A stretch of DNA of 64,000 nucleotides from an uncultured Gammaproteobacteria bacterium. GTDB lineage: Bacteria > Patescibacteriota > Microgenomatia > Levybacterales > GWA1-39-11. Under the pieces are notes generated by a model. That model searched no databases. It saw only the letters and a program-made list of their open reading frames with translations, and was not told the DNA's origin. The position numbers and the translations under genes are program-made. The DNA is taken from the NCBI GenBank assembly GCA_964537315.1, contig CAZIAP010000002.1, positions 43,237-107,236 of the forward strand, given 5' to 3'. Shown here piece by piece: positions 25,421 to 47,324 of this stretch; position 1 is the first letter of the stretch, and every line of letters starts with the position of its first letter.

Positions 25421-25428
25421 GTTTACAC

Positions 25429-31191: not shown

Positions 31192-31203
31192 GGACAGGTA
31201 CCT

Positions 31204-31238: not shown

Positions 31239-31266
31239 ACAATTTATAATTTCTCAAATGATCAAT

Positions 31267-31884
31267 TTATAATATTATATTTGTTATGTCATCTGACTGA
31301 AAATCTAGAGAAACTGTTTCCTGGTTATATAGTTCGTAGAGTACTTTTGCCACCTCGCTAGATTCAAGCGGTCGTGCAGATAGACCCATACGTTGAATCT
31401 GGCTTAAAACTCCGGCCTGCTTGCTATTCACTGCTTCTTTAATGCGGTCTTGCAGGGTCATCTTTTTGTTGGTAATTGGTCCAAGTTCAAGAGAAGAGAA
31501 GGGAATTACAACATAGATTTTTTTATCGAGCAAATTTTCACCTTTTACCAGCTCTTGGATGAATTGCTTGTACATAATAAGGTGCTCTGATAGATTTGGA
31601 TCCTGAGTTTTCTCTATTTTTGATTCTAGCATAGATAGATACTCGGTCATGTCAACTTTTTTAGAAACGATAAAAATCTGGATAGCAGATGAAAGTGAGT
31701 TCAGAAATGACATGAATCCGTATATTCGCGCATTCTGTTCCTCTGTTGAAAGTAGGAAAAAATTGACAGATGATACTTCAAGAATTGAAGCCGCATTGTT
31801 CCCTTTTAAGAACAAGATACCGTCTTTAATATCTTCTACTTCTGTAAATCCTTGTGTTGTTGATTGTATTTTTGCTTTAGCCAT
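31267..31884 (-). CDS. Hypothetical soluble protein (205 aa) in the T4SS-like locus
   Basis: ORF with no TM and no recognisable motif. Confidence 0.4.
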   Translation of the reverse strand: MAKAKIQSTTQGFTEVEDIKDGILFLKGNNAASILEVSSVNFFLLSTEEQNARIYGFMSFLNSLSSAIQIFIVSKKVDMTEYLSMLESKIEKTQDPNLSEHLIMYKQFIQELVKGENLLDKKIYVVIPFSSLELGPITNKKMTLQDRIKEAVNSKQAGVLSQIQRMGLSARPLESSEVAKVLYELYNQETVSLDFQSDDITNIIL

Positions 31885-31917
31885 AAACCTAATAAATTCT
31901 TAAGTACCTTAGCATAT

Positions 31918-33234: not shown

Positions 33235-33394
33235 ATAATCAAGCGTATAACGTGAAAATTTTATATTCAAGCATCTCAAACTAGGTCAAAGAGTCACAAA
33301 AATTGTGAAAATAAGACTTTATAAGCGATTAAAAGTTAAAAATGCATTAATAGTTGCTACATTATTGACACGATTCTATACTTAAGTTAGATAC

Positions 33395-34099
33395 ATGGAG
33401 GAATATATTTGGTTAATTCTAATTTCTGAGCTGGTTTTTCTTTTTTTTACTTCACGCTATATCTCCAAAGCTTTATTTTCTCTTAGTTATAAGGTATTTA
33501 GGAAGCAGAGCATTGCAATACGATTTGTAGCATTAATTTTCTTTCCCGGTACAGTAATTCATGAACTTGCACATTACTTGATGGCAAAGATGCTTTTTGT
33601 CAGAACAGGTAAGGTAGAGTTGACCCCCGAGTTGCATGGTAACGGTTTAAAACTGGGAAGTGTGCAAGTTGCTAAATCAGATATTCTTAGACAATTTTTG
33701 ATCGGTGTTGCACCTTTACTATTTGGATCAGCTTTGTTAGTACTTGGAACTTACTATTCTTTGCCGAAGATAATAAACTTTTCATTAGATACCTCATACC
33801 TTATACTTGCTACTTTATACCTATATGTTATTTTCGTAATCACCAACACGATGTTCTCAAGTAAAAAAGATATGGAAGGAGCGTTGGGGTTATTTATTTT
33901 TATTGCTTTTGTTACTTCAGTAATATTTGTTGCCGGGAGAGAAGAGTGGTTAATCGAACCTGTTCGGTTTATAAATGGGAATTTAATGGTACAGCTTTAT
34001 AGCAAGCAAGCAGCTCAATTATTACTAATTCCGGTTGGCATTAACTTTACAATTTTACTTCTTAATAATCTTGTGAGATTTCTTAGAAAAAATAATTAG
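33395..34099 (+). CDS. Polytopic membrane protein with an intramembrane HExxH (M50B/DUF3267-like putative metalloprotease)
   Basis: FFPGTVIHELAHYLMAK sits inside a TM helix, with about 6 TM segments. It is the only plus-strand gene inside the minus-strand T4SS block, next to the pilin-like genes. Confidence 0.4.
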   Translation: MEEYIWLILISELVFLFFTSRYISKALFSLSYKVFRKQSIAIRFVALIFFPGTVIHELAHYLMAKMLFVRTGKVELTPELHGNGLKLGSVQVAKSDILRQFLIGVAPLLFGSALLVLGTYYSLPKIINFSLDTSYLILATLYLYVIFVITNTMFSSKKDMEGALGLFIFIAFVTSVIFVAGREEWLIEPVRFINGNLMVQLYSKQAAQLLLIPVGINFTILLLNNLVRFLRKNN

Positions 34100-34114
34100 A
34101 AGTTAAGAGGACAA

Positions 34115-34459
34115 CTAGTTTGTCTCAGTATCAGGAACAATGACGTTTTGATCTACACCTAAAAGGCCGAAAAATCCATTAAATAACGCAAATGATACCG
34201 CAATAAATACAAAACCGATAATTGCAAAAGTTAAAGTTTTTTTAGCACCAGAAATCTTTTCAGGGTCACCATTAGCCGTGATTAGCTGAATACCGCTCCA
34301 TATAATGAAAATTAATGCAACTGCACTTGATAAAACAATTGCTGCATTAATGATGTTGGAGAAAAGCGGCCATATACAGGATAGAGTTGCAACCTGAGTA
34401 CCGGAAGCAGTTTCATGTAAGCACCCAGATTCATCCCAGGGACGAGTAAATAAAGCCAT
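34115..34459 (-). CDS. VirB2/TrbC-like pilin-family small membrane protein (paralog 1)
   Basis: 114 aa: AAIVLSSAVALIFIIWSGIQLITANGDPEKISGAKKTLTFAIIGFVFIAVSFAL. This is a two-helix hairpin with a charged loop, shared with the next three genes. Confidence 0.5.
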   Translation of the reverse strand: MALFTRPWDESGCLHETASGTQVATLSCIWPLFSNIINAAIVLSSAVALIFIIWSGIQLITANGDPEKISGAKKTLTFAIIGFVFIAVSFALFNGFFGLLGVDQNVIVPDTETN

Positions 34460-34517
34460 ATATTGTTTATAACAAAATCAGAAGATGAAAACTAGTAGTT
34501 TGGATTAAAGAATGAAT

Positions 34518-34979
34518 TTATTGACCTGAGAGCCTAGCGTTCTCACATTCACTTAATGCTTGACCTTCTCTTAGGTTAAGATAACACTCAAGCGTTGGAA
34601 TGTTAGGATTTAATATATCTCCAGCTCCGAGTAGTCCCATTACAAAATTAAGAATAACTACTGCTAACAGCAACACTACAAGACCTATAATTGCTGCAAT
34701 TATATGGCCTCTAGCTTCAGAAACCTTTTCCTTATCTCCGCCAGAAATGATCCATTTAATAGCTCCCCAGAGTAGAAAAATTAGTGCTGCAATAATACCA
34801 ATTGCAATTAATATAATAATTATCCAACGAACAACAGTGTTAACTGTAGCAACAGGACCTGGGTCGACAAGTGGAACGTCACCTGGAACGATATCGTTCT
34901 GCGCAAATACTTGAAATGAAGTAAATAGATAAAGTGCTGTTGCAGATAATATAGCTGTTGATTTTTTTAGAAATTTCAT
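34518..34979 (-). CDS. VirB2/TrbC-like pilin-family protein with signal peptide (paralog 2)
   Basis: Signal peptide MKFLKKSTAILSATALYLFTSFQVFAQ. Then VVRWIIIILIAIGIIAALIFLLWGAIKWIISGGDKEKVSEARGHIIAAIIGLVVLLLAVVILNF. Start placed at ATG 34979; the longer track ORF overlaps the neighbour. Confidence 0.5.
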   Translation of the reverse strand: MKFLKKSTAILSATALYLFTSFQVFAQNDIVPGDVPLVDPGPVATVNTVVRWIIIILIAIGIIAALIFLLWGAIKWIISGGDKEKVSEARGHIIAAIIGLVVLLLAVVILNFVMGLLGAGDILNPNIPTLECYLNLREGQALSECENARLSGQ

Positions 34980-35025
34980 ATCTAACTGATTATGGACATA
35001 TATGGAATTAGTTGTCAAGAGGTAA

Positions 35026-35394
35026 TTAAACGGGTGATAGCTCTCCGCCACCGCCACCTGGTCTGGACGCTGACTGAAACACATTTATCCCTAATAGTCC
35101 TCCTATGAAATTCATAATGACAAGAGAGAGTATAATAACAACGAGTCCAATAATAGAATATATGATTGTTCTGCGAGCGCTATCAAGTTTTTCTTTATCT
35201 CCCCCTGATGTGATCCATTTTATAGCACCAATAATAAGAAAGATAAGTGCAGCAATAATTCCCACACTAGTTAAAATAATAATTACCCAGGAAATTATGC
35301 CAGCTAATCCACCCTCACCAGTTGTGGGTACACCTTCAGGGGGTACGACTTCTTGTCCACCGGGTAGAGTCAGAGAAAGTAGTTTTTCCTTCAT
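35026..35394 (-). CDS. VirB2/TrbC-like pilin-family protein (paralog 3)
   Basis: IISWVIIILTSVGIIAALIFLIIGAIKWITSGGDKEKLDSARRTIIYSIIGLVVIILSLVIMNF is near-identical in motif to paralog 2 (AIKWI[IT]SGGDKEK). Confidence 0.5.
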   Translation of the reverse strand: MKEKLLSLTLPGGQEVVPPEGVPTTGEGGLAGIISWVIIILTSVGIIAALIFLIIGAIKWITSGGDKEKLDSARRTIIYSIIGLVVIILSLVIMNFIGGLLGINVFQSASRPGGGGGELSPV

Positions 35395-35486
35395 AATATT
35401 AAGTTAAGCTTTGTTTGGGGAAAAAGTCAATATTGATGGGTGTAGGCGCCCGCTTTTTGAGCAGGCGCCAAGTAAACTAAATACGA

Positions 35487-36098
35487 CTAGTAGGAGCTAG
35501 CTAAGGTCAAAGAGATCTTCTCGAAGTCATCGAGGTAATCTTCAAACCACGCAGGTCGAGCGCTGAGTTCCAATCTCACCATGTAAGGAGATCCATCGAA
35601 ACTGGTTGTCGGGAAGAATACAAGAACATGTTTTGTTATCCCGTTTGACCAAGATTTGTCATAGGAGAATTTCCAAGCAATACCTTCCTGCGGATTAAAC
35701 GCTCCATGACTTATGACGTTACTTAGAGTATCAAACCCTGCAAATGTTTGGTGATAGCAGTCAGCAAACTCTGGTAGAGATGTGTCTGAATTCCAGACAC
35801 AGTGGTCCCAGACAAGTTTGCTGCAATAGATGCTAACATTGTCTTCAAGTTCCCCAGCAGGAACTATCAAGTTCCCTTCGCTGTTTACGATTGACCAAGC
35901 CGATGGATATCTCACTGTCGCTAGGTTGCTACAGTTGATACGACCGTCCAGAGTCAGATCTGGAGATGATTGAGAACTCTGTTGAGCAGGCTTTGATGTC
36001 TGAACATCGCTGTTCTCATTCTCAGAAGCACTGCTATCGTTTCCGCAAGCTGCGAGCAATAAACCGGCGGCTAGAACAATCAATACGAACAGTTTCAT
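35487..36098 (-). CDS. Hypothetical lipoprotein
   Basis: MKLFVLIVLAAGLLLAACGNDSS gives a lipobox (LLAAC). A GGAAGG RBS lies before ATG 36098. No known domain. Confidence 0.45.
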   Translation of the reverse strand: MKLFVLIVLAAGLLLAACGNDSSASENENSDVQTSKPAQQSSQSSPDLTLDGRINCSNLATVRYPSAWSIVNSEGNLIVPAGELEDNVSIYCSKLVWDHCVWNSDTSLPEFADCYHQTFAGFDTLSNVISHGAFNPQEGIAWKFSYDKSWSNGITKHVLVFFPTTSFDGSPYMVRLELSARPAWFEDYLDDFEKISLTLASSY

Positions 36099-36293
36099 GG
36101 TTCCCAGCCTTCCTGATAGCAAGCGATGCTTAGAAAGATTTGCGCCTGCAGAAAGAAATAATAGAGCAGAATCCTTTCTAGTCGTGTTAAAGTACTGATG
36201 ATTCTGATTACATACAACAGTAACAGTTACATCTTAACCGGGAATTATAGCATAAAAAAGCGCTAAAATCAATACTATGGGACTTATTGATTG

Positions 36294-38036
36294 CTAAGAA
36301 CCTCGCTCAAATCCAGGTATCTGTAAGATGTCAATACCTATAATTTCAAGAATAGCAATGGACAAAATCAAAAAGATGAGCCCGGTAACTGATGAAGTTA
36401 TTAGTTCACGAGAACGACTAATCTTTTCTTTATCTCCTCTTGAAGTAAGAATTATATATCCTGCATAAAGAATGCGTGCAAACGCAGCCATAATACCTAT
36501 TGTTAATAAGAAAGATCCTGCATCGCGTATGAACTCTAAAGGGTTAGTTGAGAATGCAAAAATTGCAGTTTCATATTTCCCGCACTGGAATCGAGTTGGA
36601 TCTGTCTCATCAACATCTTCTCCCTTTGCATTCACCCATTGGGCGCAGGGTAGGCCGGAGTCAAGCTGTTGCTGATTAATTGCATGTTGTAGTTCTGACA
36701 TATTTGGATCTGCTTCTATCCATCTTGTGTCAACGTATGCATTGCCTTCACTATCGATATTGATGGGAATTTCATATAAAGTGAACCCACCCTGACAGAG
36801 GTCAAGATGACGGTATCGATTCGCAAAGCCAGTATCGTTAATTTGCTCGTTAATTTTTAGAATATACTTTCCTGTTGGAAAAGCGCTATTTCCATTACGT
36901 TCATCTGCAATTGTTTCTGTTACTCCATCTTCACCTATAACAACACATCTTTCTCCTGTACTGTTATGAATGAAACCAGATTTGTAGTCGTTATCAACCC
37001 CCTCAAGTACAATTTGATAATTATTGCGTTTTTCTCCTCCTGCTGTTTGTCGTCCAGAAAGAGTAACTGTGATTGGGTTAGATATTTCCACAACTCCTGG
37101 GGGTTTATCAGAATTTTTAAAGAGAATTCTACTAGTGGATCCTGTGTCTTTATTGAATCCGAACTCCAGACCTTCATGAATAGTTACGTCAGGATAATAG
37201 TGATGTACATAAAACTCAGCTAAAGCAACTAGGACAGGTGCTTCATTTTTTACAATATAAGCTCCAATTCGGTAAATGCTTCCGGCATGAAACCAGTCTC
37301 CGCTATCACATTCTGTTTTTAATTTTTTATCTTTGTTACCGCATACTGTTATATCGTCGTTATTTGAAATTCCAGCTTCTTCTCGACTGATTAGTAACTT
37401 TCCATTTCCTTTTAGCACATTGTTTTCGCATTCTTGTTGATCAGAAAGAAGGCAGAACTTGGCACCATCAGGTAAATTATTAAAACGAATCTTTACATTT
37501 TCCTCGTTGCTATCAATGAGGCCATCAGGGCTTATTATCTCTGCTGAAGGTGATTCTCCAGATATAGTGCTGTTTGTGTTGTTTTCTGAGGAAGAACCAT
37601 CATTAGAATCTTGTTCATTGTTTTGCGGGGCGGAAATAGTGATAGAAAGATTCCCTGAAGCTTCACATAGTGTGTTTTCCTCCGTGCCACTAACACGAAC
37701 AGATGCATTAGTACCGGGCTCAATCGGAGGAACAACAAGATTGTAATTTCTCTGTGATGTATTATAAGTACTTGCTGTTCCTAGTGAGTTTCCAGAGCTG
37801 TCGATGAACTCGAAATAGTAACCAGTACCTGATTGGACTTCTGCATTCGGATCTATGGTTGCTCCAACTCCCATTGTTTGTCCTGAAATAACAGGGGTAC
37901 TGTCCAACCTATTTAATGAAATTGTTGGAAGTTTTGTACATGCAGCAGCTGAAACTTGGGGAATATCTCTAAATAAGAAAGCTAGAATAATGAGTGAAAT
38001 AACTCCTAGAGAAGCAAAAATAACAACTTTTCTCAT
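36294..38036 (-). CDS. Large surface protein (about 580 aa) whose C-terminus is the same VirB2/TrbC-like membrane hairpin (paralog 4, pilin-domain fusion)
   Basis: N-terminal signal/TM (VVIFASLGVISLIILAFLF) and a roughly 500-aa Ser/Asn/Gly-rich extracellular region. C-terminus FLLTIGIMAAFARILYAGYIILTSRGDKEKISRSRELITSSVTGLIFLILSIAILEIIG. The start (ATG 38036 vs TTG 38072) is uncertain. Confidence 0.5.
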   Translation of the reverse strand: MRKVVIFASLGVISLIILAFLFRDIPQVSAAACTKLPTISLNRLDSTPVISGQTMGVGATIDPNAEVQSGTGYYFEFIDSSGNSLGTASTYNTSQRNYNLVVPPIEPGTNASVRVSGTEENTLCEASGNLSITISAPQNNEQDSNDGSSSENNTNSTISGESPSAEIISPDGLIDSNEENVKIRFNNLPDGAKFCLLSDQQECENNVLKGNGKLLISREEAGISNNDDITVCGNKDKKLKTECDSGDWFHAGSIYRIGAYIVKNEAPVLVALAEFYVHHYYPDVTIHEGLEFGFNKDTGSTSRILFKNSDKPPGVVEISNPITVTLSGRQTAGGEKRNNYQIVLEGVDNDYKSGFIHNSTGERCVVIGEDGVTETIADERNGNSAFPTGKYILKINEQINDTGFANRYRHLDLCQGGFTLYEIPINIDSEGNAYVDTRWIEADPNMSELQHAINQQQLDSGLPCAQWVNAKGEDVDETDPTRFQCGKYETAIFAFSTNPLEFIRDAGSFLLTIGIMAAFARILYAGYIILTSRGDKEKISRSRELITSSVTGLIFLILSIAILEIIGIDILQIPGFERGS

Positions 38037-38080
38037 ATATTCATCATATCCATACACGTATAATGAAAGCAAGTTGAAAT

Positions 38081-39388
38081 TTATTCTGAGAACTTAAGCC
38101 CTTTGCCTTTTACTGTGAGGATGTATTGTGGATTATTTGGGTCTGATTCTATTTTTTTACGCAGCCTATAAACTATCTGATCTAGAGCTTGGTCAGTAAC
38201 ACCTTCTTGAGTCTTTGAGTCAGTCCATACTGCGTTTATAATGCCTTCTTTTTCTACAGTTTTACCTTTATTAACTAACAAATGTTTAAGTAAGCGAAAT
38301 TCAGATGGTGTAAGGTTATCAGAAATATCGACATCACCTTTATATATCTCGTTAAGCTCTTCATTATGTGTAAATTCTTCTTTTTTTTCTTTAATGGTCG
38401 ATAAAAAAGTCTCAAAAATAGGAATGGATATTTTTCCATTGTTTAGTAGTCCAACCAACTCAAGAAACTTTGCTTCGTCTGTATGATTCTTAAGATTTTT
38501 TACGATATGTTGTTCTTCAGTCGTGAGGTAATTCCAGATCTCTGTTAAAGCACCTCTCATTTGCCTGTGGTTGAGTAGGTGAGCTTCAAGATCTTTAGGA
38601 GTTTCGTTTTCTGATAAAAATGCCTCATATGCAATTTTCACTAGCTTACCGTGTCCGCCTGTTAGCTCCATGAGCTTTTCACGAGCATCTTCATTTTTTT
38701 TGCCTGCAACTTGCTCGATGTAGTTGAGCCTAAAGTCAGGCTCATCAGGATGAGACATCTTCATAAATATTGAGTTGCCGATTAAAAATTCATAAAACTC
38801 AGCGAGAGTAGAGGTGTCAATCAGTAAATCGATAGGTCGAGATAGGGCGAATACACAAGAAAATTTATATTTTGCCCGATTGCGCAGAATCTTTAGATTA
38901 ACGAAAAATTGATCTGTTAAATCTTGTGAATATTGTTCAAGCCGATCGATTAAAAAGACTACAGACATATCTTTTTCAAGTGCCAGATAGTCAATAGATT
39001 TTTTTAAAGCCTGGAAAAGTACTAGCTCATCGTTAAACTCAATGGCTTCTTTTAAGAAGGCATTTATTTGAGTACTTTCAGTAGTCATTCCGCGCTCACT
39101 AAGTGAATATCCAAGAGAGATGAGTATAAATTTTGTGACGTCAGATAGAGGTCTGCTCCTAACCTCAGAAAAATCCATATATACAAAATGATATTTTTCT
39201 TGATTTTCTAAATGGTATTCACGTACTTTGCGGTTGTAAGCCAGCAACCTCAAAAGTCGACTTTTTCCAACTCCCGGCAATCCTAATACTTGGCTTGATG
39301 CACCTTTTTTTACGAAGCCAATAACTTTTGAAATTTCTTCATGCAATGAATTTTCAGGGTAAAGTGATTCGAAATATTTGGGTTCCAT
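38081..39388 (-). CDS. P-loop NTPase (AAA/STAND-like) fused to a C-terminal OmpR/PhoB-type winged-helix DNA-binding domain
   Basis: Walker A VLGLPGVGKSRLLRLL, Walker B MSVVFLIDRLE. C-terminus LTPSEFRLLKHLLVNKGKTVEKEGIINAVWTDSKTQEGVTDQALDQIVYRLRKKIESDPNNPQYILTVKGKGLKF matches trans_reg_C (LTPKEFxLL...R--L---VWG------R-VDVHI-RLRKKLE-DP--P-YI-TVRG-GY-F). Confidence 0.6.
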   Translation of the reverse strand: MEPKYFESLYPENSLHEEISKVIGFVKKGASSQVLGLPGVGKSRLLRLLAYNRKVREYHLENQEKYHFVYMDFSEVRSRPLSDVTKFILISLGYSLSERGMTTESTQINAFLKEAIEFNDELVLFQALKKSIDYLALEKDMSVVFLIDRLEQYSQDLTDQFFVNLKILRNRAKYKFSCVFALSRPIDLLIDTSTLAEFYEFLIGNSIFMKMSHPDEPDFRLNYIEQVAGKKNEDAREKLMELTGGHGKLVKIAYEAFLSENETPKDLEAHLLNHRQMRGALTEIWNYLTTEEQHIVKNLKNHTDEAKFLELVGLLNNGKISIPIFETFLSTIKEKKEEFTHNEELNEIYKGDVDISDNLTPSEFRLLKHLLVNKGKTVEKEGIINAVWTDSKTQEGVTDQALDQIVYRLRKKIESDPNNPQYILTVKGKGLKFSE

Positions 39389-39400
39389 AGGTAAAATTAC

Positions 39401-39410
39401 TAATTTCTAA
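39401..39410. repeat. TAATTTCTAA 10-mer copy, 13-22 bp upstream of the NTPase-wHTH gene start
   Basis: Plus-strand TAATTTCTAA at 39401-39410 (gene-sense TTAGAAATTAG). Flanked by ATTACTAAT near-repeats. Confidence 0.55.
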
Positions 39411-39424
39411 TTACTAATAACAAA

Positions 39425-39790
39425 TTAAAGCTGCTTATCATTTTTATTAGCTGTATGAATTATAGCATTGAAGATCAGGTTGAGCTCTTTTGCTTCTTGG
39501 ATAATTTTTTCGGCGTCACTTGCTAAATCTGGAGAAGCATGTTTGATCATAAGTAGCCAGTGAATTGTTTCTTTTGATTCTTTCTTACATATTCCAAGTT
39601 TATGCTTGAAATCTAGTCGACTTTCAGCATTATCAGCTTCGCAATAGTTTGCACCAACGCTAGTAGAGGACCTAACTAATTGGGATATGAGAGGGAGAGT
39701 AATAGCAGTTCGTGGAACTGTTTTACAGAATGCAATTGTGTTTTCCCCAAACTTGCGTGTTCTTTCTTCAAGATCATATTTTCTGATCAT
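39425..39790 (-). CDS. Four-helix-bundle protein (TIGR02436; formerly '23S rRNA intervening-sequence protein' family)
   Basis: MIRKYDLEERTRKFGENTIAFCKTVPRTAITLPLISQLVRSSTSVGANYCEADNAESRLDFKHKLGICKKESKETIHWLLMI matches the family hallmark (Y-L-ERT--F---I--------------QL-RS-TSIGANY-EA----S--DF--K--I--KE--ET-YWL-L). Confidence 0.65.
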   Translation of the reverse strand: MIRKYDLEERTRKFGENTIAFCKTVPRTAITLPLISQLVRSSTSVGANYCEADNAESRLDFKHKLGICKKESKETIHWLLMIKHASPDLASDAEKIIQEAKELNLIFNAIIHTANKNDKQL

Positions 39791-39805
39791 ATTACATTAT
39801 ATCAA

Positions 39806-39836
39806 TTAGAAATTAGATATTAGTTATTAGAAATTA
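39806..39836. repeat. Two copies of TTAGAAATTA, 21 bp apart, in the divergent region upstream of the 1395-aa ORF, oriented toward that ORF
   Basis: TTAGAAATTA at 39806-39815 and 39827-39836. They lie between the four-helix-bundle gene start (39790) and the ATG at 39918. Confidence 0.55.
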
Positions 39837-39917
39837 AATTTGAAGATGATTTTTATAAGGAAGTTGTGAGGATCATATCAAGGTAAAAGCAAATACCTGA
39901 TTTACAATAGCTTCACT

Positions 39918-42900
39918 ATGAAAGAACAATTGACACGCTCACCGAATCTAACGTACTCTAATAGTATGGAAGATAGTGGAGAAAAAAATATTTATCACGC
40001 GGAAGATAAAATTCAAGATAAGTCACCGAAAGTATCAAAGATTTCAAGAATAACTCAGCAAGAAGAAAAAGATAGGATTGATAAAATTATTAGTGGTGCT
40101 CCTGCATTACATCAAGAACCCTTACGGCAATCTCTTTACGAAGCATATTTTACAGCTTCATCCACCGAAGCAGAAGACTCTTCTCGTATAGACGAAATAA
40201 GAAAAGAACTTGATGAGACAGTTTCAGATTCCGACGAGAACAATGAAGATATTATGGAAAGATTGGGAAGAGCTGAACAAGAATTAGGGAGAAATCTTAA
40301 TGCTCAAGAAAAAGCAGCCATAATTGCAGCTCATAATGTGGGCGAAAATGAGCAGGGAAAAGACGGATCAGAGGCAGGAATAAATAACTATACATTTTCT
40401 CAGTTGAGAGAAAAAGCAAAAATTCTTAAAGGGGATGACGAGCAGAAAGGTTTTTCTAAAGAGGAAAGACGTAAATTGATGGAAGCAGGTATTGTGGGAG
40501 AGGAGAGAGATAAACAGGATTTGCGTAGTACACCTGAAAGGTTAGTTGAGTTAAGTGAAGCTCAACTTCGTGAGCAAGAAGCTATTAGAAAAAATACTGA
40601 TACTATGGTTCAGCAGCTAAGCGAATTACTAAGCATATCTGCAGAAGAACGAGATATACTGCGTAAACTTAGTGATGAACAAATGGAAAGGCTTATTCAA
40701 TCAATTGAGTTTAGCAAGACAACCTTTGAAGAATATATTGAAAAGTCAATTCGACAAGGACTTGACGATCCTAAAGAAAGAAAAACTAATGAAGTTGTAA
40801 TGGAAGCGATTAGTAAAGTAAGTGCAGAGGAGTATGAGACTTATCGTAATGCAGAATCAAAAGTAAGATCTGAGAGAAATCGTGTAATATTCTCATATGC
40901 CAATGCAGTGAAAGATAATTTTAAAGGAGGAGAATACCTAGAAGATGATGAATGGAGCGGAACTGTGGAAGAGTATATCAGGAGGGAAGTCGATCGGGTA
41001 GGAGAAGTACTAGATGATTTAGAAGATAAATTTATTAGTGGTGATTTAAACGATCTAGAAGTACAAAGAGAACTAAGGAATATTTCAAAAGATAGTGAGC
41101 GTATCCAAAACGAAGCAAATATTTTAGCAGGAATAGACCCTCAAGAAAGAAGAGGTAGAGGAAAAGCTGTTAAAAATATTGAAGAATTAATGAAATTTAT
41201 AATGGAGCTTCATCCGGATTACTCAGAAGAGGGTAACTATCCATTAATATACCCTCCTGAACATGAACAAGCAGGAGAAATTAATCAAGGAAATTTTATT
41301 CAGTGGATTCGCGACCAGTTGTCGCATTATCATAACCAAGACGCTGATAACCCACAGGTAAACTTTTTCGGTAATATCAGTGTGGAAGTTGAATCCCAAG
41401 GCTATACGAGAACTGTTAATGTTTTACAGATGATCAATAATCCCGGCGTATTTTTTAAGAGCAAAAACGGACATGTCTTGAATGGTTTGAGAGATGAAGT
41501 TGAGCGCACGATATGGCAATACTCAACAAATCGCAATAATAGAATTGCATATTTTCAGTCAATGCCTCTTGACACCAAAATTGCTGATGTTGTTGCGGCA
41601 ATCAACTCAAATAATGCACTCACAAAGCCTGCATATGAAGGCAAAAGTCCTCTCTACTGGAATTTGACTCAATCTGAAAGATATGAAAACGAGACTCGTT
41701 TGGATGCACGGGTAGGAGAGGGTATAGTTGCTGGAACGATGATTTATTATGACATTACTGATTACGAAGCTCTTAAAAAACGTTGTGCACCAATCAAAGA
41801 TGCTGAAGGAAAAGACGATGTTTCCCCTCTTTTTGATTTAAATAAAATAAAAGCAGCAGCACAGAGTATTTTGATCTCTAATAAAAGACCGGATTATGAT
41901 AAATACTTTACAGAAGACACCTGGGCTGAGATTAGTAGTTGGTTTGATGACAACGGAGTGTTAAAAGATGGAAGTGGAGATAAGTGGATCAAGTTTTTTA
42001 ATCCTTATGAACCACAACAAGACACAAGGAAGCTCGAATTACTTCGCGCATTAATTGCTGAAGAGATCTCTAGAAGAACCGGTCTGAATAGTAATGCCGC
42101 AAAATATGCCGAGCAGTGGGCACAGTTTCAAATTGATTTCATGTTGATATCAGCTCGAGGTGGTGTAGGAGCTGCTGCGTATAACGGGGCTGAAAAAGGA
42201 CTTCGAATGCTTGAATATTATGAGCGTGCATGGAGTGATACTAAACCAGGTTTGGGTAACCCAAAAGCTTTAGGTTTACTTGTTGCGCCTGGAGTTGATT
42301 TTCTCATCGGCACTCAAGTTAGATCTTCAGAGTTTAAATTAGCGGAGGTAAGTAAGGCAACAGATTCTAAAGGAAACTTTAACAAAGTCAATATTGTAGA
42401 ATTTGATGAAAAGGGTGAACCGGTTAAGGTAAGCCATACACTTAAAGATAACCAAGAGGTACTTTACGTAGGTAGTAAAATTATTTCGAGCAAAACAAAA
42501 GGGGAGATAATCAGCTTCGAGGAACGAGAAAAAATTGCGGCATTTACCTTATTGGACGACAAAGAAGAAATTTTAGAAAATGCTGAAGTAAAAGAAAATG
42601 CTAATACTGGAGAGTTCACAGTATTCGTGAATGGTCAAGAATATAAATCGTACAAACCAAGCGAAGAAGATGGAAAATATACAAATCATTACGAATTGGT
42701 TGGGGAAAGAAAATATAAGATTACGAAACGTGAATGGCATTTTGATGATGCGCTTGGACTCAATACTAAGGATAAAAGAGTGGTTGTAGAAGTTGATGAG
42801 CAAGGAAACAGACGTTACTTAGGAGAGTTAAAAGAAAATGAGAGGGTAGATCTAGGAGGAAATACACTTAAGTCAATGCAAGAGGTGAGGGTACGGGAGA

Positions 42901-44105
42901 AAGTTTTTATTGGAGGACAGTTAGCCTACACACTTAAAGATGGAGAAAGCACAGAGCAATCTGGAGATCAAATATGGATTATAAAAGACGGAAAAGTAAT
43001 TAAAAAGTTATGGGCAAGGATTAATAAAGATGGAAATTCTTATAAAAGAGAAATTCAACATGTTGACGTACGATATACTACCGTGAACGGTGAAGAAACA
43101 GCGGTGGAAGGTGCAATCCAAACGCATAAAACAACTAATTTAGATAACTCAGAGATTAAAATTAAGAAAGAAAGAGTGATTGAAGAGTGGCGTGAGCATC
43201 AGCTTTCTACCTATGATGTATTACAACATATGGACGAAACTCGATCGGAGTGGCAAGAACGTATTAATCAAGCAACCACGAAGGAGGAAAAGGATCGTCT
43301 TAGAAAGGAAGCGGATGATAAAGTTCAATATTGGGCATTAAAGCTTGAGTGGGGGTCAGATGAACAACGTCAGTTTGCGCAAAATCAGTTTGGTCGGGCA
43401 ATGCAACTTTTTCATGAGTATGGGCAAAAATTTGTAATCGATCCTAGAAGCCTATATAGCTACGATGAAAAAAAGGGGTTTGTATTTGATCAAGGAAAGC
43501 TCCAAGAAGAGATTGGTGAAAAGCTTATAAAACCTAGACGTTATGCATTTAGAACATGGCCTCATCTTGACATGAGTAGGATTGTCAGAGCTCCAGATCC
43601 AGAAAACAAATTTGAATATAGAGAGATGTTTTTGGCTGAAGCAATTTTCGGCAGACAAGTCCTTGAAACATTTCGTAGAAAAGACGGTACGATTGACTTT
43701 GAATTTTTAAGTAGTAGAGACGGAATAAAAGAGTTGATAAAAACTGAGGCATTACTTAGGTTGGCTGCAGATGAAATGTATTTTGAAGATCTCGACATGC
43801 TTACACCAAGGCTCGGCTTACAGGCTAAGTTAGCATACCGTAAAGGTATATTTACTCTTTCTGATGGAATTTCGATTGACTATAGAAACGTAAAGAACAA
43901 TAAGGTGAGTAATGGGTTTTTCGGAGCCCGTAAAATTTCTTTTAATGAATATGGACCTTCATTTGAGCAGGTTTATAACAAAGCTACTGGAGCTTCACCA
44001 CTCTCCATAATACGAAAAGAAACACAAAATGCAGTGCTTTTTCAGGGGTTCAGAGGAGTTTTTGATGCTGTAAAGGAAGTAGTCGGATCAGCATTTAAAT
44101 CATAA
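39918..44105 (+). CDS. Giant hypothetical protein (1395 aa), highly charged (E/K/D/R-rich), coiled-coil-prone N-half. No TM, no recognisable catalytic motif.
   Basis: Single uninterrupted 4.2-kb ORF. The N-terminal 450 aa are dominated by E/K/R/D heptad-like stretches. I see no Walker motifs or HUH relaxase motif. Confidence 0.6.
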   Translation: MKEQLTRSPNLTYSNSMEDSGEKNIYHAEDKIQDKSPKVSKISRITQQEEKDRIDKIISGAPALHQEPLRQSLYEAYFTASSTEAEDSSRIDEIRKELDETVSDSDENNEDIMERLGRAEQELGRNLNAQEKAAIIAAHNVGENEQGKDGSEAGINNYTFSQLREKAKILKGDDEQKGFSKEERRKLMEAGIVGEERDKQDLRSTPERLVELSEAQLREQEAIRKNTDTMVQQLSELLSISAEERDILRKLSDEQMERLIQSIEFSKTTFEEYIEKSIRQGLDDPKERKTNEVVMEAISKVSAEEYETYRNAESKVRSERNRVIFSYANAVKDNFKGGEYLEDDEWSGTVEEYIRREVDRVGEVLDDLEDKFISGDLNDLEVQRELRNISKDSERIQNEANILAGIDPQERRGRGKAVKNIEELMKFIMELHPDYSEEGNYPLIYPPEHEQAGEINQGNFIQWIRDQLSHYHNQDADNPQVNFFGNISVEVESQGYTRTVNVLQMINNPGVFFKSKNGHVLNGLRDEVERTIWQYSTNRNNRIAYFQSMPLDTKIADVVAAINSNNALTKPAYEGKSPLYWNLTQSERYENETRLDARVGEGIVAGTMIYYDITDYEALKKRCAPIKDAEGKDDVSPLFDLNKIKAAAQSILISNKRPDYDKYFTEDTWAEISSWFDDNGVLKDGSGDKWIKFFNPYEPQQDTRKLELLRALIAEEISRRTGLNSNAAKYAEQWAQFQIDFMLISARGGVGAAAYNGAEKGLRMLEYYERAWSDTKPGLGNPKALGLLVAPGVDFLIGTQVRSSEFKLAEVSKATDSKGNFNKVNIVEFDEKGEPVKVSHTLKDNQEVLYVGSKIISSKTKGEIISFEEREKIAAFTLLDDKEEILENAEVKENANTGEFTVFVNGQEYKSYKPSEEDGKYTNHYELVGERKYKITKREWHFDDALGLNTKDKRVVVEVDEQGNRRYLGELKENERVDLGGNTLKSMQEVRVREKVFIGGQLAYTLKDGESTEQSGDQIWIIKDGKVIKKLWARINKDGNSYKREIQHVDVRYTTVNGEETAVEGAIQTHKTTNLDNSEIKIKKERVIEEWREHQLSTYDVLQHMDETRSEWQERINQATTKEEKDRLRKEADDKVQYWALKLEWGSDEQRQFAQNQFGRAMQLFHEYGQKFVIDPRSLYSYDEKKGFVFDQGKLQEEIGEKLIKPRRYAFRTWPHLDMSRIVRAPDPENKFEYREMFLAEAIFGRQVLETFRRKDGTIDFEFLSSRDGIKELIKTEALLRLAADEMYFEDLDMLTPRLGLQAKLAYRKGIFTLSDGISIDYRNVKNNKVSNGFFGARKISFNEYGPSFEQVYNKATGASPLSIIRKETQNAVLFQGFRGVFDAVKEVVGSAFKS

Positions 44106-44140: not shown

Positions 44141-45844
44141 CTAACTATTTTCTTGACCCTGATTAGTTTCTCGTTGTCGTCTTGCTCTTTGTTCTGCATT
44201 GTATTGTGCTTCTAACCGTTGAGCCTCAATTCTCTCTTGTGCATCTCTTCTCATCTGTCCAATTTTTCCTCCAACGGGTCCGCGAGACCAGAACTGCTCT
44301 AAGCGAGGACGAACATTCCCTCTCCATATAATTGCGCCCGTTCCTTTTGGATTACCATTTGCATCAGTTTCAAAAAGCTTGCTACCAACCTTTTTAGGTA
44401 TAGCAGAAGCTGCAGATGAACCAACTCCGAATGCTGCTCCAACAGCTCGTTGGTACGAAACGGTTGGAGCTTTAAGCGTATCTTTAACCATATTTACAAC
44501 TTCTGTAGTCATTAACAAAACAGCAATGCCTATTAATGCGCTAAAATATTTAGGATTAATTGCTCCACCAATAAAAGGAGGAGTGAAGTGATCAGCTCCT
44601 CCTCCGCTGAACATCTGTGCAAACACAGAACCGAGCAGGAACATAAAAAGTGTTACCGGAAAAACTGCAATATAGGCAAAAATATGCTTAAACCAAGACC
44701 CTGCATTGAGAGGTGAACCAGGGATAAGACTGCCAGCAATCCAAATGGGGGCAACAACTGTATCAATAAGTATAAATAAGTATGCTTTTAACAATAAGAA
44801 CCAGAGTCTTAACAATGCATAGAGAAGTGCAAAAGTTATAATGAAAAATGCTATTGTACCTCCTAATACGCCAATTAGATCATATGGTGAAAAAGATCTA
44901 TATATCGGTACATCAATTCCGGTAACTCTCTCTATCGCATAAAATGGCGCTGTAGCAGGGTTTAGCAAATTAAAAGCATCGGTAAATATTTGTCCAAAAA
45001 ATGTTTCAGCTACGCTTCCCTCAAGAATGCTGGTAATTATATGTCCAATTTCAAATGATGCGTTTTTAACAATATCAAAACCTCCAAAAAATCCTAGAAC
45101 TCCAAAGGGAGTTTGACCCTGTATTTTTGTCGGATCTAAGCTAGAAAGATTCGCTCCAGTTCCAAGCATAATTTGATAAAAAAGATACATAAAAAGATAC
45201 ATAATATCTATTAAAAATCCTGATATGGCGTATGAAAATGTAATTAAAATTAATACAATTACTGCTTTTGGAATCGCGTTCTGAATTGTCATTACGGACC
45301 TTGGATCAATATTAAATCTGAAAATTATTCCGATCCCCATAATCATGAAAATGATTACAAACAATACATAAATTATGTTTCTAAATGCTGTCCACGTGGC
45401 AAGAAGTGGATTTAATGCTCTAAAGCCATGTCCTTCTTGTGCATATGTTGATTTTATGACCCCGAAGTTGGAAGCAGTGTGTTGAATGTATTGACCGGTA
45501 TTAATAGGTACATCAAAAGTCCAAGCAATCATACTACCTACAGCTCCAATCGCACCTCCTCCATTTTCCACAAATCCGATTTGTCCTGACTTTGGATCAA
45601 CTCCCAGACATTTAGTCGATGGGTTTACCGGATCGACACCTGTTAGCTGGCAGGAAATTGCCGCCATTACTTCAATCAGAACCATCTGTGTATGAGTACC
45701 GTAATTTTGAGGAACGTCGCTGTTTACACGCCCAGGTAAAGCACTAGAAGTGGCTGTAGTAGCTGGTGCTTGAGCAAAAATTACCGGGGCTGAAAAGTTC
45801 AGGAAAAAAGCGACGAAAAACAGCACGGCGAGCAGGCGTTTCAT
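44141..45844 (-). CDS. VirB6/TrbL-like polytopic membrane protein
   Basis: Signal peptide (MKRLLAVLFFVAFFLNFSAPVIFA), an extracytoplasmic segment, at least 6 TM helices (IIYVLFVIIFMIMGIGIIF; IVLILITFSYAISGFLIDIMYLF...), and a C-terminal cytoplasmic charged tail (QRARRQRETNQGQENS). This architecture and its locus context fit VirB6/TrbL. Start at ATG 45844; the track's 45898 is a TTG. Confidence 0.5.
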   Translation of the reverse strand: MKRLLAVLFFVAFFLNFSAPVIFAQAPATTATSSALPGRVNSDVPQNYGTHTQMVLIEVMAAISCQLTGVDPVNPSTKCLGVDPKSGQIGFVENGGGAIGAVGSMIAWTFDVPINTGQYIQHTASNFGVIKSTYAQEGHGFRALNPLLATWTAFRNIIYVLFVIIFMIMGIGIIFRFNIDPRSVMTIQNAIPKAVIVLILITFSYAISGFLIDIMYLFMYLFYQIMLGTGANLSSLDPTKIQGQTPFGVLGFFGGFDIVKNASFEIGHIITSILEGSVAETFFGQIFTDAFNLLNPATAPFYAIERVTGIDVPIYRSFSPYDLIGVLGGTIAFFIITFALLYALLRLWFLLLKAYLFILIDTVVAPIWIAGSLIPGSPLNAGSWFKHIFAYIAVFPVTLFMFLLGSVFAQMFSGGGADHFTPPFIGGAINPKYFSALIGIAVLLMTTEVVNMVKDTLKAPTVSYQRAVGAAFGVGSSAASAIPKKVGSKLFETDANGNPKGTGAIIWRGNVRPRLEQFWSRGPVGGKIGQMRRDAQERIEAQRLEAQYNAEQRARRQRETNQGQENS

Positions 45845-45906
45845 ATATATACAGTATGGGGGAATATTTGATACAAAGTCAACTTTTTTAAGCTTCAAAT
45901 TAGCTG

Positions 45907-47318: not shown

Positions 47319-47324
47319 ACAAAT

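Follow-up and report, generated by a model that had tools for sequence, protein, structure and literature searches.

The stretch of DNA analysed (hereafter the window, 64 kb) contains on its reverse strand an open reading frame that begins with ATG and occupies exactly positions 38081–39388. The ORF list, Pfam, the homologues and an AF2 model indicate that its product, a regulator of 435 amino acids, joins a STAND-like NTPase module to a C-terminal winged helix of the OmpR/PhoB type; it is probably an uncharacterised and widely conserved transcription factor of the Levybacteria, which are ultra-small CPR bacteria.

Downstream, after a gap of 8 nt containing no terminator-like site, lies on the same strand the gene of a 592-aa membrane protein (36294–38072), whose orthologues carry a T4SS_pilin domain (Pfam; loci L007, L170 and L171) and with which the structural part of the presumably regulated operon probably begins. 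Further along the reverse strand three VirB2-like T4SS pilin genes in a row (34115–35394; Pfam T4SS_pilin, 35.7–40.1 bits) and a group of PrgI(VirB3)-like, TraC-like and VirB4-like (TraG P-loop) genes (28633–33279) are found, the TraC-like gene being named from the annotations of its orthologues, so that the placement of the regulator in a T4SS-like locus, proposed in an earlier reading based on sequence only, is borne out by the PrgI, pilin and VirB4-like genes. In the opposite direction, diverging from this operon and sharing its control region, a forward-strand gene (39918–44105) encodes a 1395-aa protein for which profile searches returned no domain matches; this gene is syntenic in the relatives, being co-directional with the regulator in L170 and L171. 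No partner histidine kinase is present in the locus, no Rfam family was detected between 31000 and 40100, and a generic scan for promoters and terminators between 30800 and 40100 yielded counts equal to those of shuffled sequences.

In the one Patescibacterium amenable to genetics, the T4SS and its pilin array are indispensable for growth as an epibiont (Wang et al. 2023, PMC10633639). No regulator is mentioned in recent surveys of Patescibacteria T4SS loci, where the only suggestion is an effect of gene dosage due to the nearby replication origin (PMC12102498); our own literature search, which covered both this protein architecture and regulators of CPR T4SSs, returned nothing relevant.

Linkage of the regulator to the T4SS genes

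In 61 of 73 loci the regulator heads a cluster of T4SS pilin, PrgI, TraC and VirB4 genes and adjoins the pilin-domain protein and the pilins, and the operon order in Levybacteria would accordingly read: regulator, large pilin-domain membrane protein, VirB2-like pilin array, PrgI, TraC, VirB4. Because synteny is strong throughout this lineage, adjacency constitutes weaker evidence than it would appear to. Indeed, NrdR, RNR, DUF5667 and further unrelated genes show the same degree of synteny in the Levybacteria loci, dnaA and dnaN adjoin the T4SS cluster, distant members of the regulator family have other surroundings altogether, with CHAT/TCAD9/TPR genes or with MalT/BTAD as neighbours, and a PWM scan and a regex search of the window found no further copies of the candidate operator described below in front of the pilin or VirB4 genes, all of which would suit a general-purpose or unrelated regulator brought next to the T4SS by nothing other than the strong synteny around the replication origin. 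This possibility is nevertheless rather unlikely, for the adjacency outlasts the rearrangements that have taken place. In six loci (L048 being the one followed in detail) the regulator is inverted in situ and yet still adjacent to T4SS genes, and family members of only 31–35% identity still lie beside pilins or VirB4 despite a different gene order, as in L170–L172, where the region has been reordered wholesale and neither NrdR nor RNR is found in the vicinity. The tight coupling between the regulator and the pilin-domain gene likewise speaks against a fortuitous neighbourhood. Since the linkage is conserved in approximately 70 species and survives changes in gene order, the most economical reading is that the protein regulates the T4SS locus.

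Domain architecture and family of the regulator

The C-terminal domain (residues 358–432; 38093–38317) matches Pfam Trans_reg_C with 68.8 bits (gathering cutoff 26.2; E=4.3e-19), and a PDB sequence search relates it to structures of the OmpR, KdpE, PhoB and RegX3 DNA-binding domains. The AF2 model (pLDDT 89 and pTM 0.75 for the full-length protein) displays the N-terminal β-sheet, the three helices and the C-terminal hairpin wing typical of the OmpR family (β structure at 339–350, helices at 361–372, 380–387 and 399–413, β structure at 423–433), and Foldseek superimposes it on 1odd, 3zq7 and 6lxn with TMt 0.69–0.72 and rmsd 2.3–3.2, OmpR and KdpE being among the proteins whose DNA-binding domains are matched in fold. 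The invariant columns extend from V397 to K412, and the recognition helix (...TDQALDQIVYRLRKKIE) is nearly invariant in the alignment. On the other hand, Pfam gives no Response_reg match, hence no receiver (REC) domain with its phospho-acceptor, and the NCBIfam response-regulator models cover only residues ~335–435, with scores far below their cutoffs. The PDB search performed with the profile of the full-length protein was dominated by OmpR-family DNA-binding domains.

The N-terminal module (AF2: pLDDT 91, pTM 0.90) begins with a nucleotide-binding domain (residues 1–210; 38759–39388) that comprises five β-strands and a three-helix insertion (residues 81–138) between β2 and β3, and for which Foldseek finds PAB2304, SSO1545, Cdc6/Orc1 and CED-4. 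Its P-loop, GLPGVGKS (residues 36–43; 39260–39283), has in 137 close family members an invariant G41, S43 in 122 and, at the position of K42, lysine in 91, arginine in 45 and glutamine in one; furthermore, some close members have lost the P-loop glycines as well (AAPAVGRS). In the Walker B strand VFLID-R (residues 144–149; 38942–38959) D148 is kept in 136 of the 137 and is followed by an arginine (R149, in 127) instead of the second acidic residue (DD/DE) characteristic of STAND proteins, an E or a D occurring at this position only in some distant members, others having R or Q. By contrast, the sensor-1 arginine expected of a STAND NTPase is present, within the motif FALSRP, at the end of β4 (residues 176–182 in the model): the pair R184–P185 is encoded at 38834–38839 and R184 is found in 133 of the 137. 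A helical lid follows (residues 215–260; 38609–38746), containing the sequence TGGHGKL (243–249) as the probable counterpart of the STAND GxP motif; the proline is replaced here (GGHGKL), whereas distant members have GGHPxLL or GGYPxLL in the same columns, and H246 recurs in 132 of the close members. The module ends with a small winged-helix-like domain (residues 265–335; 38384–38596) formed by helices between 267 and 311 and a hairpin at ~314–320, the three domains together being matched by Cdc6/Orc1 and PAB2304. Beyond residue 335 the model holds only the DNA-binding winged helix, and Pfam detects no repeat-type sensor family (TPR, WD40, LRR or SUPR) either in this protein or in 61 homologues. 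Thus, the Walker A/B NTPase perceived in the sequence-only reading stands, as a module of ~335 aa, while the description as helical repeats was rejected, the AF2 models displaying a nucleotide-binding domain, a lid and a small winged helix and no TPR-like repeat sensor.

The protein itself falls below the Pfam cutoff for every NTPase family (AAA_35, 24.2 bits against a cutoff of 27; AAA_16, nSTAND3 and NACHT also sub-threshold), and its N-terminal module has no NCBIfam match. Among the 61 homologues, at E<=0.001, NTPase profiles are matched by AAA_16 in 29, nSTAND1 in 23 and NACHT in 7 cases, several of the nSTAND1 matches exceeding the cutoff of 27.1 bits. Pfam returned no Sigma54_activat AAA+ domain, which sets the protein apart from enhancer-binding proteins, and PADLOC produced only weak local matches (mad8, E=1.4e-4). 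A similarity to ABC ATPases emerging from the PDB profile search (residues 9–49, E=1.5e-4) is restricted to the P-loop region and was judged generic because in the model a helix, and not the ABC β-subdomain, precedes the P-loop.

The closest folds are those of the archaeal "ATPase_2" AAA+ proteins and of ORC/Cdc6 (TM 0.44–0.59 overall), PAB2304 and SSO1545 reaching 0.55–0.59, whereas the resemblance to ORC/Cdc6, whose context is replication initiation, is significant and loose at the same time (Foldseek E ~1e-6, TM 0.43–0.53). Neither Pfam nor the PDB profile search yields a match to an ORC/Cdc6 sequence profile; sequence similarity ends at the P-loop, the Walker B "DE" is absent and the regulator possesses in addition the OmpR-type domain. 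Nevertheless, the fact that the N-terminal module finds its best fold matches among AAA+ initiators and loaders that end in a winged helix (ORC4, Cdc6/Orc1, DnaA, MuB, TnsC) raises the question of whether the protein might be a DNA-handling part of the secretion apparatus, ORC/DnaA/MuB-like or akin to an oriT-binding accessory protein, that stands in for missing relaxosome components. The T4SSs of Patescibacteria do lack a relaxase and often the coupling protein (PMC10633639, PMC12102498), and the phased repeats described below could in principle serve as an assembly site. Yet TM values of 0.4–0.5 are modest and generic for modules made of a nucleotide-binding domain, a lid and a winged helix, including the STAND protein CED-4; the same domain arrangement is found in homologues whose loci contain no T4SS genes; and the conserved repeats form part of a promoter-like sequence immediately in front of the gene that opens the operon. 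Furthermore, to our knowledge the Trans_reg_C fold is used almost exclusively by transcription factors, and a role in DNA handling must be regarded as very improbable.

The derived nature of the ATPase site is evident from its sequence, and the lysine/arginine exchange in Walker A together with the missing second Walker B acid makes hydrolysis doubtful: ATP hydrolysis by the regulator is probably slow or dispensable and the NTPase may be a pseudo-enzyme. Carried to its extreme, this view would make of the module a degenerate, nucleotide-independent scaffold that only oligomerises, the regulator binding DNA constitutively or being controlled by a partner protein. The arginine found in 45 of 137 P-loops, the loss of P-loop glycines in some of them, the D-R pair of Walker B and the replaced GxP proline would all fit such a scaffold. 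On the other hand, arginine retains the positive charge at the phosphate-binding position, G41 is invariant, S43, D148 and R184 are 89–99% conserved in the close family and the module as a whole is conserved as strongly as the DNA-binding domain. A complete independence of nucleotide is an unlikely alternative, albeit one of some weight, and nucleotide gating of the regulator is plausible. Of the earlier description of the protein as a candidate nucleotide-gated regulator of the locus, the regulatory role is favoured by the conserved linkage, whereas the "nucleotide-gated" part is weakened by the altered Walker motifs.

A homologue search with the regulator identified 776 homologues; all of the 120 matches listed are 432–484 aa long with a coverage of 99–100%, so that the suspicion of two ORFs joined by a sequencing error is ruled out and the gene can be considered a single one. 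The succession of a P-loop NTPase and a C-terminal OmpR-type winged helix, recognised at the outset from sequence, is consequently real and conserved. Orthologues are present in about 70 Levybacteria species, Trans_reg_C is found with Pfam in 60 of 61 family members, and the same domain order is maintained in distant relatives from Chloroflexi (20–28% identity), which score as Pfam nSTAND1. A search with the N-terminal module alone yielded 488 clusters at 50% identity, nearly all of 430–490 aa. Because of the size of this family the architecture is less unusual than first thought, even though the papers searched contain no characterised protein with an NTPase preceding an OmpR-type winged helix. 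It is a NOD placed directly before an OmpR-type winged helix, without sensor repeats, and as such a fresh variant among the STAND-type transcription regulators.

The IVP cassette and the 10-mer arrays

Between the head promoter and the regulator a gene (39425–39790, reverse strand) is inserted that encodes a four-helix-bundle protein of the 23S_rRNA_IVP / TIGR02436 type (50 bits with Pfam, 74.5 bits with TIGR02436). It occupies this position in only 16 of the 73 loci and is the sole IVP gene of the window. Its 3′ arm (39395–39427, reverse strand) consists of 4.7 copies of a 7-nt unit (TRF) and its 5′ arm (39804–39836, forward strand) of the mirror array of the same unit length; the two form an inverted repeat (I1) with 26-nt arms and 88% complementarity that pairs in both the MFE and the centroid folds, closing the cassette as a stem.

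These arms contain copies of the 10-mer TTAGAAATTA, which in the sequence-only reading had been regarded as an operator shared by the regulator and other genes. The enrichment is real: five exact copies are present against 0.59 expected, a number reached in none of 100 shuffles. One copy (39401–39410), within the 3′ arm, is located 12 nt upstream of the ATG of the regulator and two exact copies are in the 5′ arm. The 10-mer clusters at three places of the T4SS locus, each oriented toward the downstream gene, and one of these, a solo array of three 10-mer-like units (31204–31256, reverse strand) situated 12 nt before the ATG (31191) of the VirB4-like gene, has no IVP gene beside it. Taken by themselves these data could suggest an autoregulated regulon, with the repeats acting as operators common to the region upstream of the regulator, the divergent intergenic region and the region upstream of VirB4. 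However, the arrays at ~39400 and ~39820 are inverted copies around the IVP gene; the 22 IVP genes of related loci are all flanked by mirror arrays whose unit sequence is specific to the individual cassette; and orthologous loci lacking the cassette lack the arrays as well, despite a nearly identical recognition helix of their regulators. In addition, the sites of the PhoB/OmpR family are phased at 10–11 bp, with which contiguous 7-bp units do not agree. Since the arrays differ between cassettes they do not represent a conserved operator, and the 10-mer was rejected as the operator of the regulator, its operator function in the locus at large being very unlikely. Thus, whereas the 10-mer and its location were correctly observed, the argument for autoregulation that had been built on it falls with its assignment to a cassette arm.

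The head promoter and the proposed mechanism

A better operator candidate, on sequence grounds, is the conserved element CTTGATATgatcCTCACAActtcCTTATAAaaa at the head of the operon (39852–39882, reverse strand), identified by PWM and by comparison of the orthologous loci. It contains the hexamers TTGATA (39881–39876), TCACAA (39869–39864) and TTATAA (39858–39853), the last two being 11 bp apart, and conforms to the consensus CTTGATAT-N5-cTnACAa-N5-TtACAa, with direct repeats phased at 11 bp. The PWM (29.7 bits) has a single match in the window, at 33.2 bits, and 87 matches in 1.43 Mb of orthologous loci as opposed to 3 in shuffled sequences. The element is present in approximately 60 species, lying in ~60 loci 37–190 nt upstream of the regulator or of the IVP gene that precedes it; it is also found upstream of the regulator in L172, where protein identity is down to 31%, and weaker copies precede PrgI in L024, L026 and L081. 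Part of it is a promoter of the sigma-70 type (TTGATA-N18-TAcAAT), and, because the hexamers resemble −35 and −10 boxes, "operator" and "promoter" are not fully separable. The middle hexamer nonetheless occurs in 49 of the 60 elements, compared with 1 of the 8 promoter-like sites that served as a small control set and with ~3% of random positions. A conserved DNA word is what would be expected from the nearly invariant recognition helix.

A regex search for phased pairs revealed no enrichment in the window (5 against 4.7, and 3 against 1.3). A second phased-repeat site (61822–61858, forward strand), between the operon of the VirD4-like T4CP and tRNA-Ser/TraX, resembles by eye the head elements of L030, L035 and L046 at ~26 of 29 positions of its core. 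This site was discarded as an operator of the regulator: in 80 metagenomic relatives phased pairs upstream of the T4CP genes gave 7 matches against 11 in shuffles, and a site resembling it is found only in L090 (87% identical).

As a whole, the data are best explained, with somewhat better than even confidence, by a transcription factor composed of a STAND module and an OmpR-type winged helix that heads its own T4SS/pilus operon and controls it through the phased repeats. As to DNA-binding specificity, the part played by the nucleotide and the sign of the regulation, we infer the following sequence of events. Residues 1–335 would constitute a STAND-class nucleotide-binding oligomerisation module (nucleotide-binding domain, helical lid and winged helix), working as a nucleotide-binding switch and not as a motor, and residues 358–432 the DNA-binding domain. 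The nucleotide bound at the P-loop would determine conformation and oligomeric state of the module, whereupon at least two C-terminal winged helices could align head-to-tail and bind the 11-bp-phased TtACAa direct repeats of the head promoter, thereby controlling the regulator's own operon and probably also the divergent gene of the 1395-aa protein. Autoregulation is likely in view of the conserved phased-repeat element within the operon's head promoter. The examples of MalT, AfsR/SARP and PhoB incline us towards activation; autorepression is also conceivable, because an overlap between the repeats and the core promoter is seen in many loci, that of the window among them.

A more daring version of this mechanism, unlikely in its entirety, takes the regulator for a "sensor-less" STAND switch whose signal is the nucleotide itself. 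The organisms concerned cannot make their own nucleotides and their T4SS/pilus machinery is essential for the epibiotic lifestyle; occupancy of a hydrolysis-poor P-loop might hence report on the host being tapped, the quantity sensed being ATP versus ADP or the plain availability of nucleotide, and the loaded protein might polymerise on the head repeats in the manner of ORC/DnaA, switching on the epibiotic machinery. Were this so, the protein would be the first dedicated T4SS regulator of Patescibacteria and would define a new domain-order class of STAND transcription factors. The regulator and its predicted operator offer a handle, testable in vitro, on T4SS control in at least one large CPR lineage, the Levybacteria; and the STAND field gains a minimal architecture, with a natural Lys/Arg polymorphism in Walker A, as a compact model for studying the contribution of the nucleotide cycle to transcription factors of the STAND type.

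Among known systems, MalT and the other LAL proteins (STAND, LuxR family) share with the regulator the arrangement of an N-terminal STAND module and a C-terminal DNA-binding domain in one polypeptide, and they form nucleotide-dependent oligomers on arrays of repeated sites. They differ from it in size (~900 against 435 aa), in having an arm and a SUPR/TPR sensor, in their LuxR/GerE HTH in place of the OmpR/PhoB winged helix and in the second acidic residue of Walker B; indeed, GerE, TPR_MalT and WHD_MalT find no Pfam match in the regulator or in 61 relatives. AfsR and the large SARPs (wHTH – BTAD – NB-ARC/STAND – TPR) combine the same two superfamilies in reversed order, their winged helix being N-terminal, and their binding sites, heptamers repeated directly in 11-bp phase and overlapping the −35 region, resemble the phased TtACAa repeats of the head promoter. 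The regulator has no TPR sensor, and no BTAD match was obtained with Pfam in it or in 61 relatives; SARPs belong to Actinobacteria and the present family to CPR bacteria and Chloroflexi, with an NTPase of a different, nSTAND1/AAA_16-like clade. With the OmpR/PhoB response regulators the protein has in common the fold and family of the DNA-binding domain, from which binding to tandem direct repeats is to be expected, whereas a P-loop NTPase module takes the place of their receiver phospho-switch. In the published description of the nSTAND1 conflict NTPases (Kaur et al. 2021, PMC8195603) effector or adaptor domains occupy the N-terminus and repeat sensors the C-terminus, and no wHTH in C-terminal position is mentioned. 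The regulator of the window scores below the nSTAND1 cutoff and accompanies a secretion system instead of a conflict system, whereas distant members of its family exceed that gathering cutoff, one of them lying beside CHAT/TCAD9/TPR genes.

A P-loop module followed by an OmpR-type winged helix

The gene at 38081-39388 (-) starts with ATG and encodes a 435-aa protein, REG, with boundaries identical to those of the sequence-only reading, in which an NTPase was thought to precede a C-terminal OmpR/PhoB-type winged helix within a single ORF. This order is borne out: Walker A (GLPGVGKS) and Walker B (VFLID) motifs are found in the N-terminal 335 residues, and the C-terminus is unambiguously an OmpR/PhoB-type winged helix, Pfam Trans_reg_C matching residues 358-432 with 68.8 bits (cutoff 26.2). 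This domain matches in sequence the solved DNA-binding domains of OmpR, KdpE, PhoB and RegX3, its fold resembles those of solved OmpR-family DNA-binding domains (TMt ~0.7, rmsd 2.3-3.2 Å) and its recognition helix is almost invariant in the family alignment. NCBIfam response-regulator models align, far under their own cutoffs, with residues ~335-435 alone, a stretch corresponding to the DNA-binding portion of the models. A fusion of two ORFs by sequencing error is ruled out by 776 homologues, the 120 listed matches being all 432-484 aa long with 99-100 % of the query aligned; their database names go no further than "winged helix-turn-helix domain-containing protein".

The same domain order recurs in distant members of the family (20-28 % identity), nine of ten of which end in Trans_reg_C and several of which exceed the nSTAND1 gathering score, and in a mixed set of 61 members, where Trans_reg_C is recognized in 60, AAA_16 in 29, nSTAND1 in 23 and NACHT in 7. 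With residues 1-335 as query against 1.8 billion cluster representatives, 488 clusters were retrieved at E<=1e-3, nearly all of them proteins of 430-490 aa in which the matching part is N-terminal.

The N-terminal 335 residues of REG itself reach no Pfam cutoff (AAA_35, 24.2 against 27; AAA_16, nSTAND3 and NACHT, weaker). AlphaFold2 yielded confident models of both the full protein (pLDDT 89, pTM 0.75) and the N-terminal module alone (pLDDT 91, pTM 0.90), consisting of a P-loop domain of five strands, into which three helices (residues 81-138) are inserted between beta2 and beta3, a lid made of helices (~215-260) and a small winged helix (~265-335), followed by a variable linker and the OmpR-type domain; the helical repeats formerly attributed to the NTPase do not appear, the models being devoid of TPR-like repeats. 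The nearest PDB structures found by Foldseek are the archaeal AAA+ ATPases PAB2304 and SSO1545 (TM 0.55-0.59), with Cdc6/Orc1 (TM 0.44-0.53), the STAND protein CED-4 (TM 0.48-0.51), MuB and DnaA also among the neighbours. The modelled fold is the NBD-lid-WH body plan common to initiator AAA+ and STAND proteins, and sequence evidence, including the search with residues 1-335 and the family matches of the homologues given above, favours the STAND class. The sensor-1 arginine (FALSRP) is kept as R184 in 133 of 137 close relatives and the lid of distant members carries the STAND "GxP" motif as GGHPxLL, versus GGHGKL in the Levybacteria clade. Of the features that define this class, REG has the Walker A motif, the aspartate of Walker B, the arginine of sensor 1 and, in the models, a lid followed by a winged helix; it has neither a second acidic residue in Walker B nor a sensor made of repeats.

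Transcription factors of the STAND class are known: MalT/LAL proteins consist of NOD, sensor and LuxR HTH, AfsR and the large SARPs of OmpR wHTH, BTAD, NOD and TPRs. REG has the parts list of a SARP in the order of MalT, with no sensor domain whatever; it differs from response regulators in lacking a receiver, from SARPs in lacking BTAD and in its reversed domain order, and from LAL proteins in lacking LuxR HTH or SUPR. The paper defining nSTAND1 does not mention a wHTH fusion.

In STAND and AAA+ proteins the Walker B aspartate is followed by Asp or Glu; in 127 of the 137 close relatives of REG this residue is Arg. The Walker A lysine (residue 42; 39263-39265) is Lys in 91 of these relatives, Arg in 45 and Gln in 1, the distant relatives having 73 Lys and 15 Arg, and a few close relatives also lack some P-loop glycines (AAPAVGRS). 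P-loop proteins so strongly constrained elsewhere seldom show such a natural Lys/Arg polymorphism. On the other hand, G41, S43, D148 and R184 are conserved at 89-100 % in close relatives. By its sequence the ATPase site is a derived one, and we infer that nucleotide binding is kept, hydrolysis being slow or dispensable. Since binding is read as retained, the "nucleotide-gated" regulator proposed earlier is plausible as a binding switch, less so as an ATPase cycle, in view of the Lys/Arg exchange and of the Asp-Arg pair. Possibly the module is a pseudo-enzyme scaffold.

Linkage to the T4SS locus

A scan restricted to one genome per species returned 496 stretches encoding a relative of REG, of which the 80 best were examined and 73 had a strong match. 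The sources named are Levybacteria (Candidatus Levyibacteriota), Microgenomates or the Patescibacteria group. Dozens of MAGs entitled "uncultured Gammaproteobacteria bacterium" and one "Bacteriovorax sp." also contain Levybacteria-type REG/T4SS loci (L012, L015, L017, L018, L020, which is the same contig as L006, L021 and many others); these names seem to be in error, the Gammaproteobacteria-titled records appearing to be mislabelled bulk MAGs.

The earlier placement of REG in a T4SS-like locus is upheld. In 61 of the 73 loci it adjoins a large pilin-domain membrane protein and a VirB2-like pilin array, with PrgI, a TraC-like and a VirB4-like gene farther downstream, and the window has the same order; short contigs, L018 and L058 among them, account for some of the remaining loci. 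The next gene follows the REG stop codon at a distance of only 8 nt, and a scan of this region of the window revealed no terminator-like site in the gap.

Gene order is well conserved across Levybacteria generally, NrdR-RNR and DUF5667 being likewise syntenic, and therefore evidence from inversions, rearrangements and Chloroflexi contexts outweighs mere adjacency. REG is inverted in situ yet still adjacent to T4SS genes in six loci (L048, L055, L064, L068-L070); at L048 (10001-11800) the conserved promoter element that heads the operon is followed by an IVP gene (23S_rRNA_IVP family), antisense REG and the pilin operon, so that transcription from it would run antisense through REG. Members of only 31-35 % identity still adjoin T4SS genes in different arrangements, the pilin operon being divergent from REG and the gene for a giant protein following it in L170 and L171, and REG being convergent with VirB4-TraC-PrgI in L172. 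Remote Chloroflexi homologues have unrelated contexts (CHAT/TCAD9/TPR genes, or MalT/BTAD neighbours). Because inverted and rearranged CPR loci keep their T4SS neighbours and Chloroflexi homologues do not, the link belongs to the CPR subfamily, not to the domain architecture in itself. The papers describing Patescibacteria T4SS (PMC10633639, PMC12102498, PMC12857230) mention no regulator; REG, judging from sequence, is a candidate, and one that can be tested, for the first regulator dedicated to a CPR T4SS, albeit in an uncultivated lineage.

Several features of the surroundings were also noted. The 1395-aa giant protein (39918-44105, +) and a 585-aa protein (44141-45898, -) have no Pfam or NCBIfam match, are always beside REG across Levybacteria, divergent or downstream, and are possibly T4SS-associated surface or effector proteins. 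Since dnaA and dnaN (21412-24098, +) directly adjoin the T4SS cluster (24103-39388, -), the latter is adjacent to a likely replication origin, an arrangement already published for Microgenomatia (PMC12102498). NrdR and a class II-like ribonucleotide reductase with TSCPD domain and cobalamin adenosyltransferase (46863-49775, +) form a block syntenic with the REG region in many Levybacteria. ARAGORN located a tRNA-Ile with anticodon TAT at 58738-58811 (-); isoleucine tRNAs of the unmodified UAU type are not known to be common in bacteria.

IVP cassettes and the repeated 10-mer

The 10-mer TTAGAAATTA, whose presence upstream of REG had suggested autoregulation, is truly enriched in the window (5 exact copies against 0.59 expected); with one mismatch there is no overall enrichment, the additional copies falling at the same three places. 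The unit is actually a 7-nt tandem repeat. Two arrays, one next to REG (39395-39427) and one in the intergenic region between the divergent genes (39804-39836), repeat each other in inverted orientation, form arms of 26 nt that are 88 % complementary and bracket a gene (39425-39790) for a 23S_rRNA_IVP/TIGR02436 four-helix-bundle protein. When the 458-nt transcript is folded, the arrays pair as a cassette-closing stem in both MFE and centroid structures, with an overall z-score of only -1.5. All 22 IVP genes of related loci have the same mirror-array flanks, the unit being cassette-specific (TTTTGAN, ATTTGTA, AAATYCGAA and others); an IVP gene occupies this position in only 16 of the 73 loci, lying elsewhere in the cluster in others, and no arrays were found at REG orthologues without an upstream IVP gene. 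Because inverted arrays bracket IVP genes, their units vary and cassette-free orthologues lack them, we conclude that the REG-proximal 10-mer marks the edge of an IVP cassette inserted there and is not an operator.

Intervening sequences of rRNA that RNase III excises are known to contain IVP ORFs, also in CPR bacteria (PMC11270868). The present cassettes, with stem-capable inverted arrays of 7-8-nt units, are placed not in rRNA but in mRNA leaders or intergenic gaps of the T4SS/pilin cluster, both in the window (39395-39836) and in L001, L015, L017, L022, L027, L031, L033, L038-L040, L043, L049, L053, L055-L057, L071 and L170, with two or three per locus in L040, L049 and L057. Three TTAGAAATTA-like units form an array by themselves (31204-31256, -), which ends 12 nt before the ATG of the VirB4-like gene and is oriented like a cassette 3' arm, with neither IVP gene nor inverted partner nearby; it could be the remnant of a lost cassette or have a separate function.

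The promoter-embedded head element

Alignment of the regions upstream of REG orthologues revealed an element, CTTGATAT-N5-cTnACAa-N5-TtACAa(T), common to about 55 distinct loci. The derived PWM (31 nt, 29.7 bits of information) matches the 64-kb window once, scoring 33.2 bits at 39852-39882 (-); related loci totalling 1.43 Mb contain 87 matches, and shuffled sequence 3. Strong matches are always 37-190 nt upstream of REG or, in cassette-bearing loci such as the window, of the IVP gene before it; L172, whose REG has 31 % identity, has CTTGATTtctaCCTAACAGgtagCTAACAG directly upstream of it. The outer hexamers resemble a sigma-70 promoter (TTGATA-N18-TAcAAT), and the middle hexamer is the same word as the third, 11 bp apart; 49 of 60 elements have it, compared with ~3 % of random positions and 1 of 8 other promoter-like sites, a small control sample (Fisher p = 2e-4). 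Some loci have three or four phased copies, and weaker copies of the element precede PrgI in L024, L026 and L081. OmpR/PhoB-family domains and SARPs usually bind direct repeats phased by 10-11 bp; since the repeats fit such sites and the recognition helix is almost invariant, the head element is a reasonable operator candidate, albeit one inseparable from the promoter in silico.

In the mechanism proposed here, the NOD-like module would self-associate in a nucleotide-dependent manner and so bring at least two C-terminal winged helices into register on the phased repeats of the head promoter. REG would thereby govern the operon running from its own gene through the pilins to the T4SS genes; the divergent 1395-aa gene, with its start codon 36 nt away from the element, would probably be under the same control. 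MalT, AfsR/SARP and PhoB, taken as analogues, speak for activation; autorepression is also possible, given that the core promoter is overlapped by the repeats. In about one third of the loci the third hexamer, 7-13 nt before the ATG, also provides the sole plausible -10 box; in others a separate TATAAT comes ~18 nt downstream, and the placement is thus compatible with either sign of regulation.

A second phased-repeat site, CACTTGAATAGCTATATTAAGCTCACAAAATCTTCACAGG followed by GAGTATAAT (61822-61892, +), is flanked by a VirD4-like coupling-protein operon (58858-61792, -) on one side and by a tRNA-Ser(GCT) with a TraX-family gene (62031-62708, +) on the other. It is not conserved in 80 T4CP-centred relatives, a similar one being present in L090 only; its core is nearly identical to the head elements of L030, L035 and L046. 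Finally, -10-like TACAAT/TATAAT hexamers are found only 7-13 nt before the starts of REG orthologues and, at 39895-39917, before that of the giant gene, with no clear Shine-Dalgarno upstream of either, which suggests very short or absent 5' leaders.
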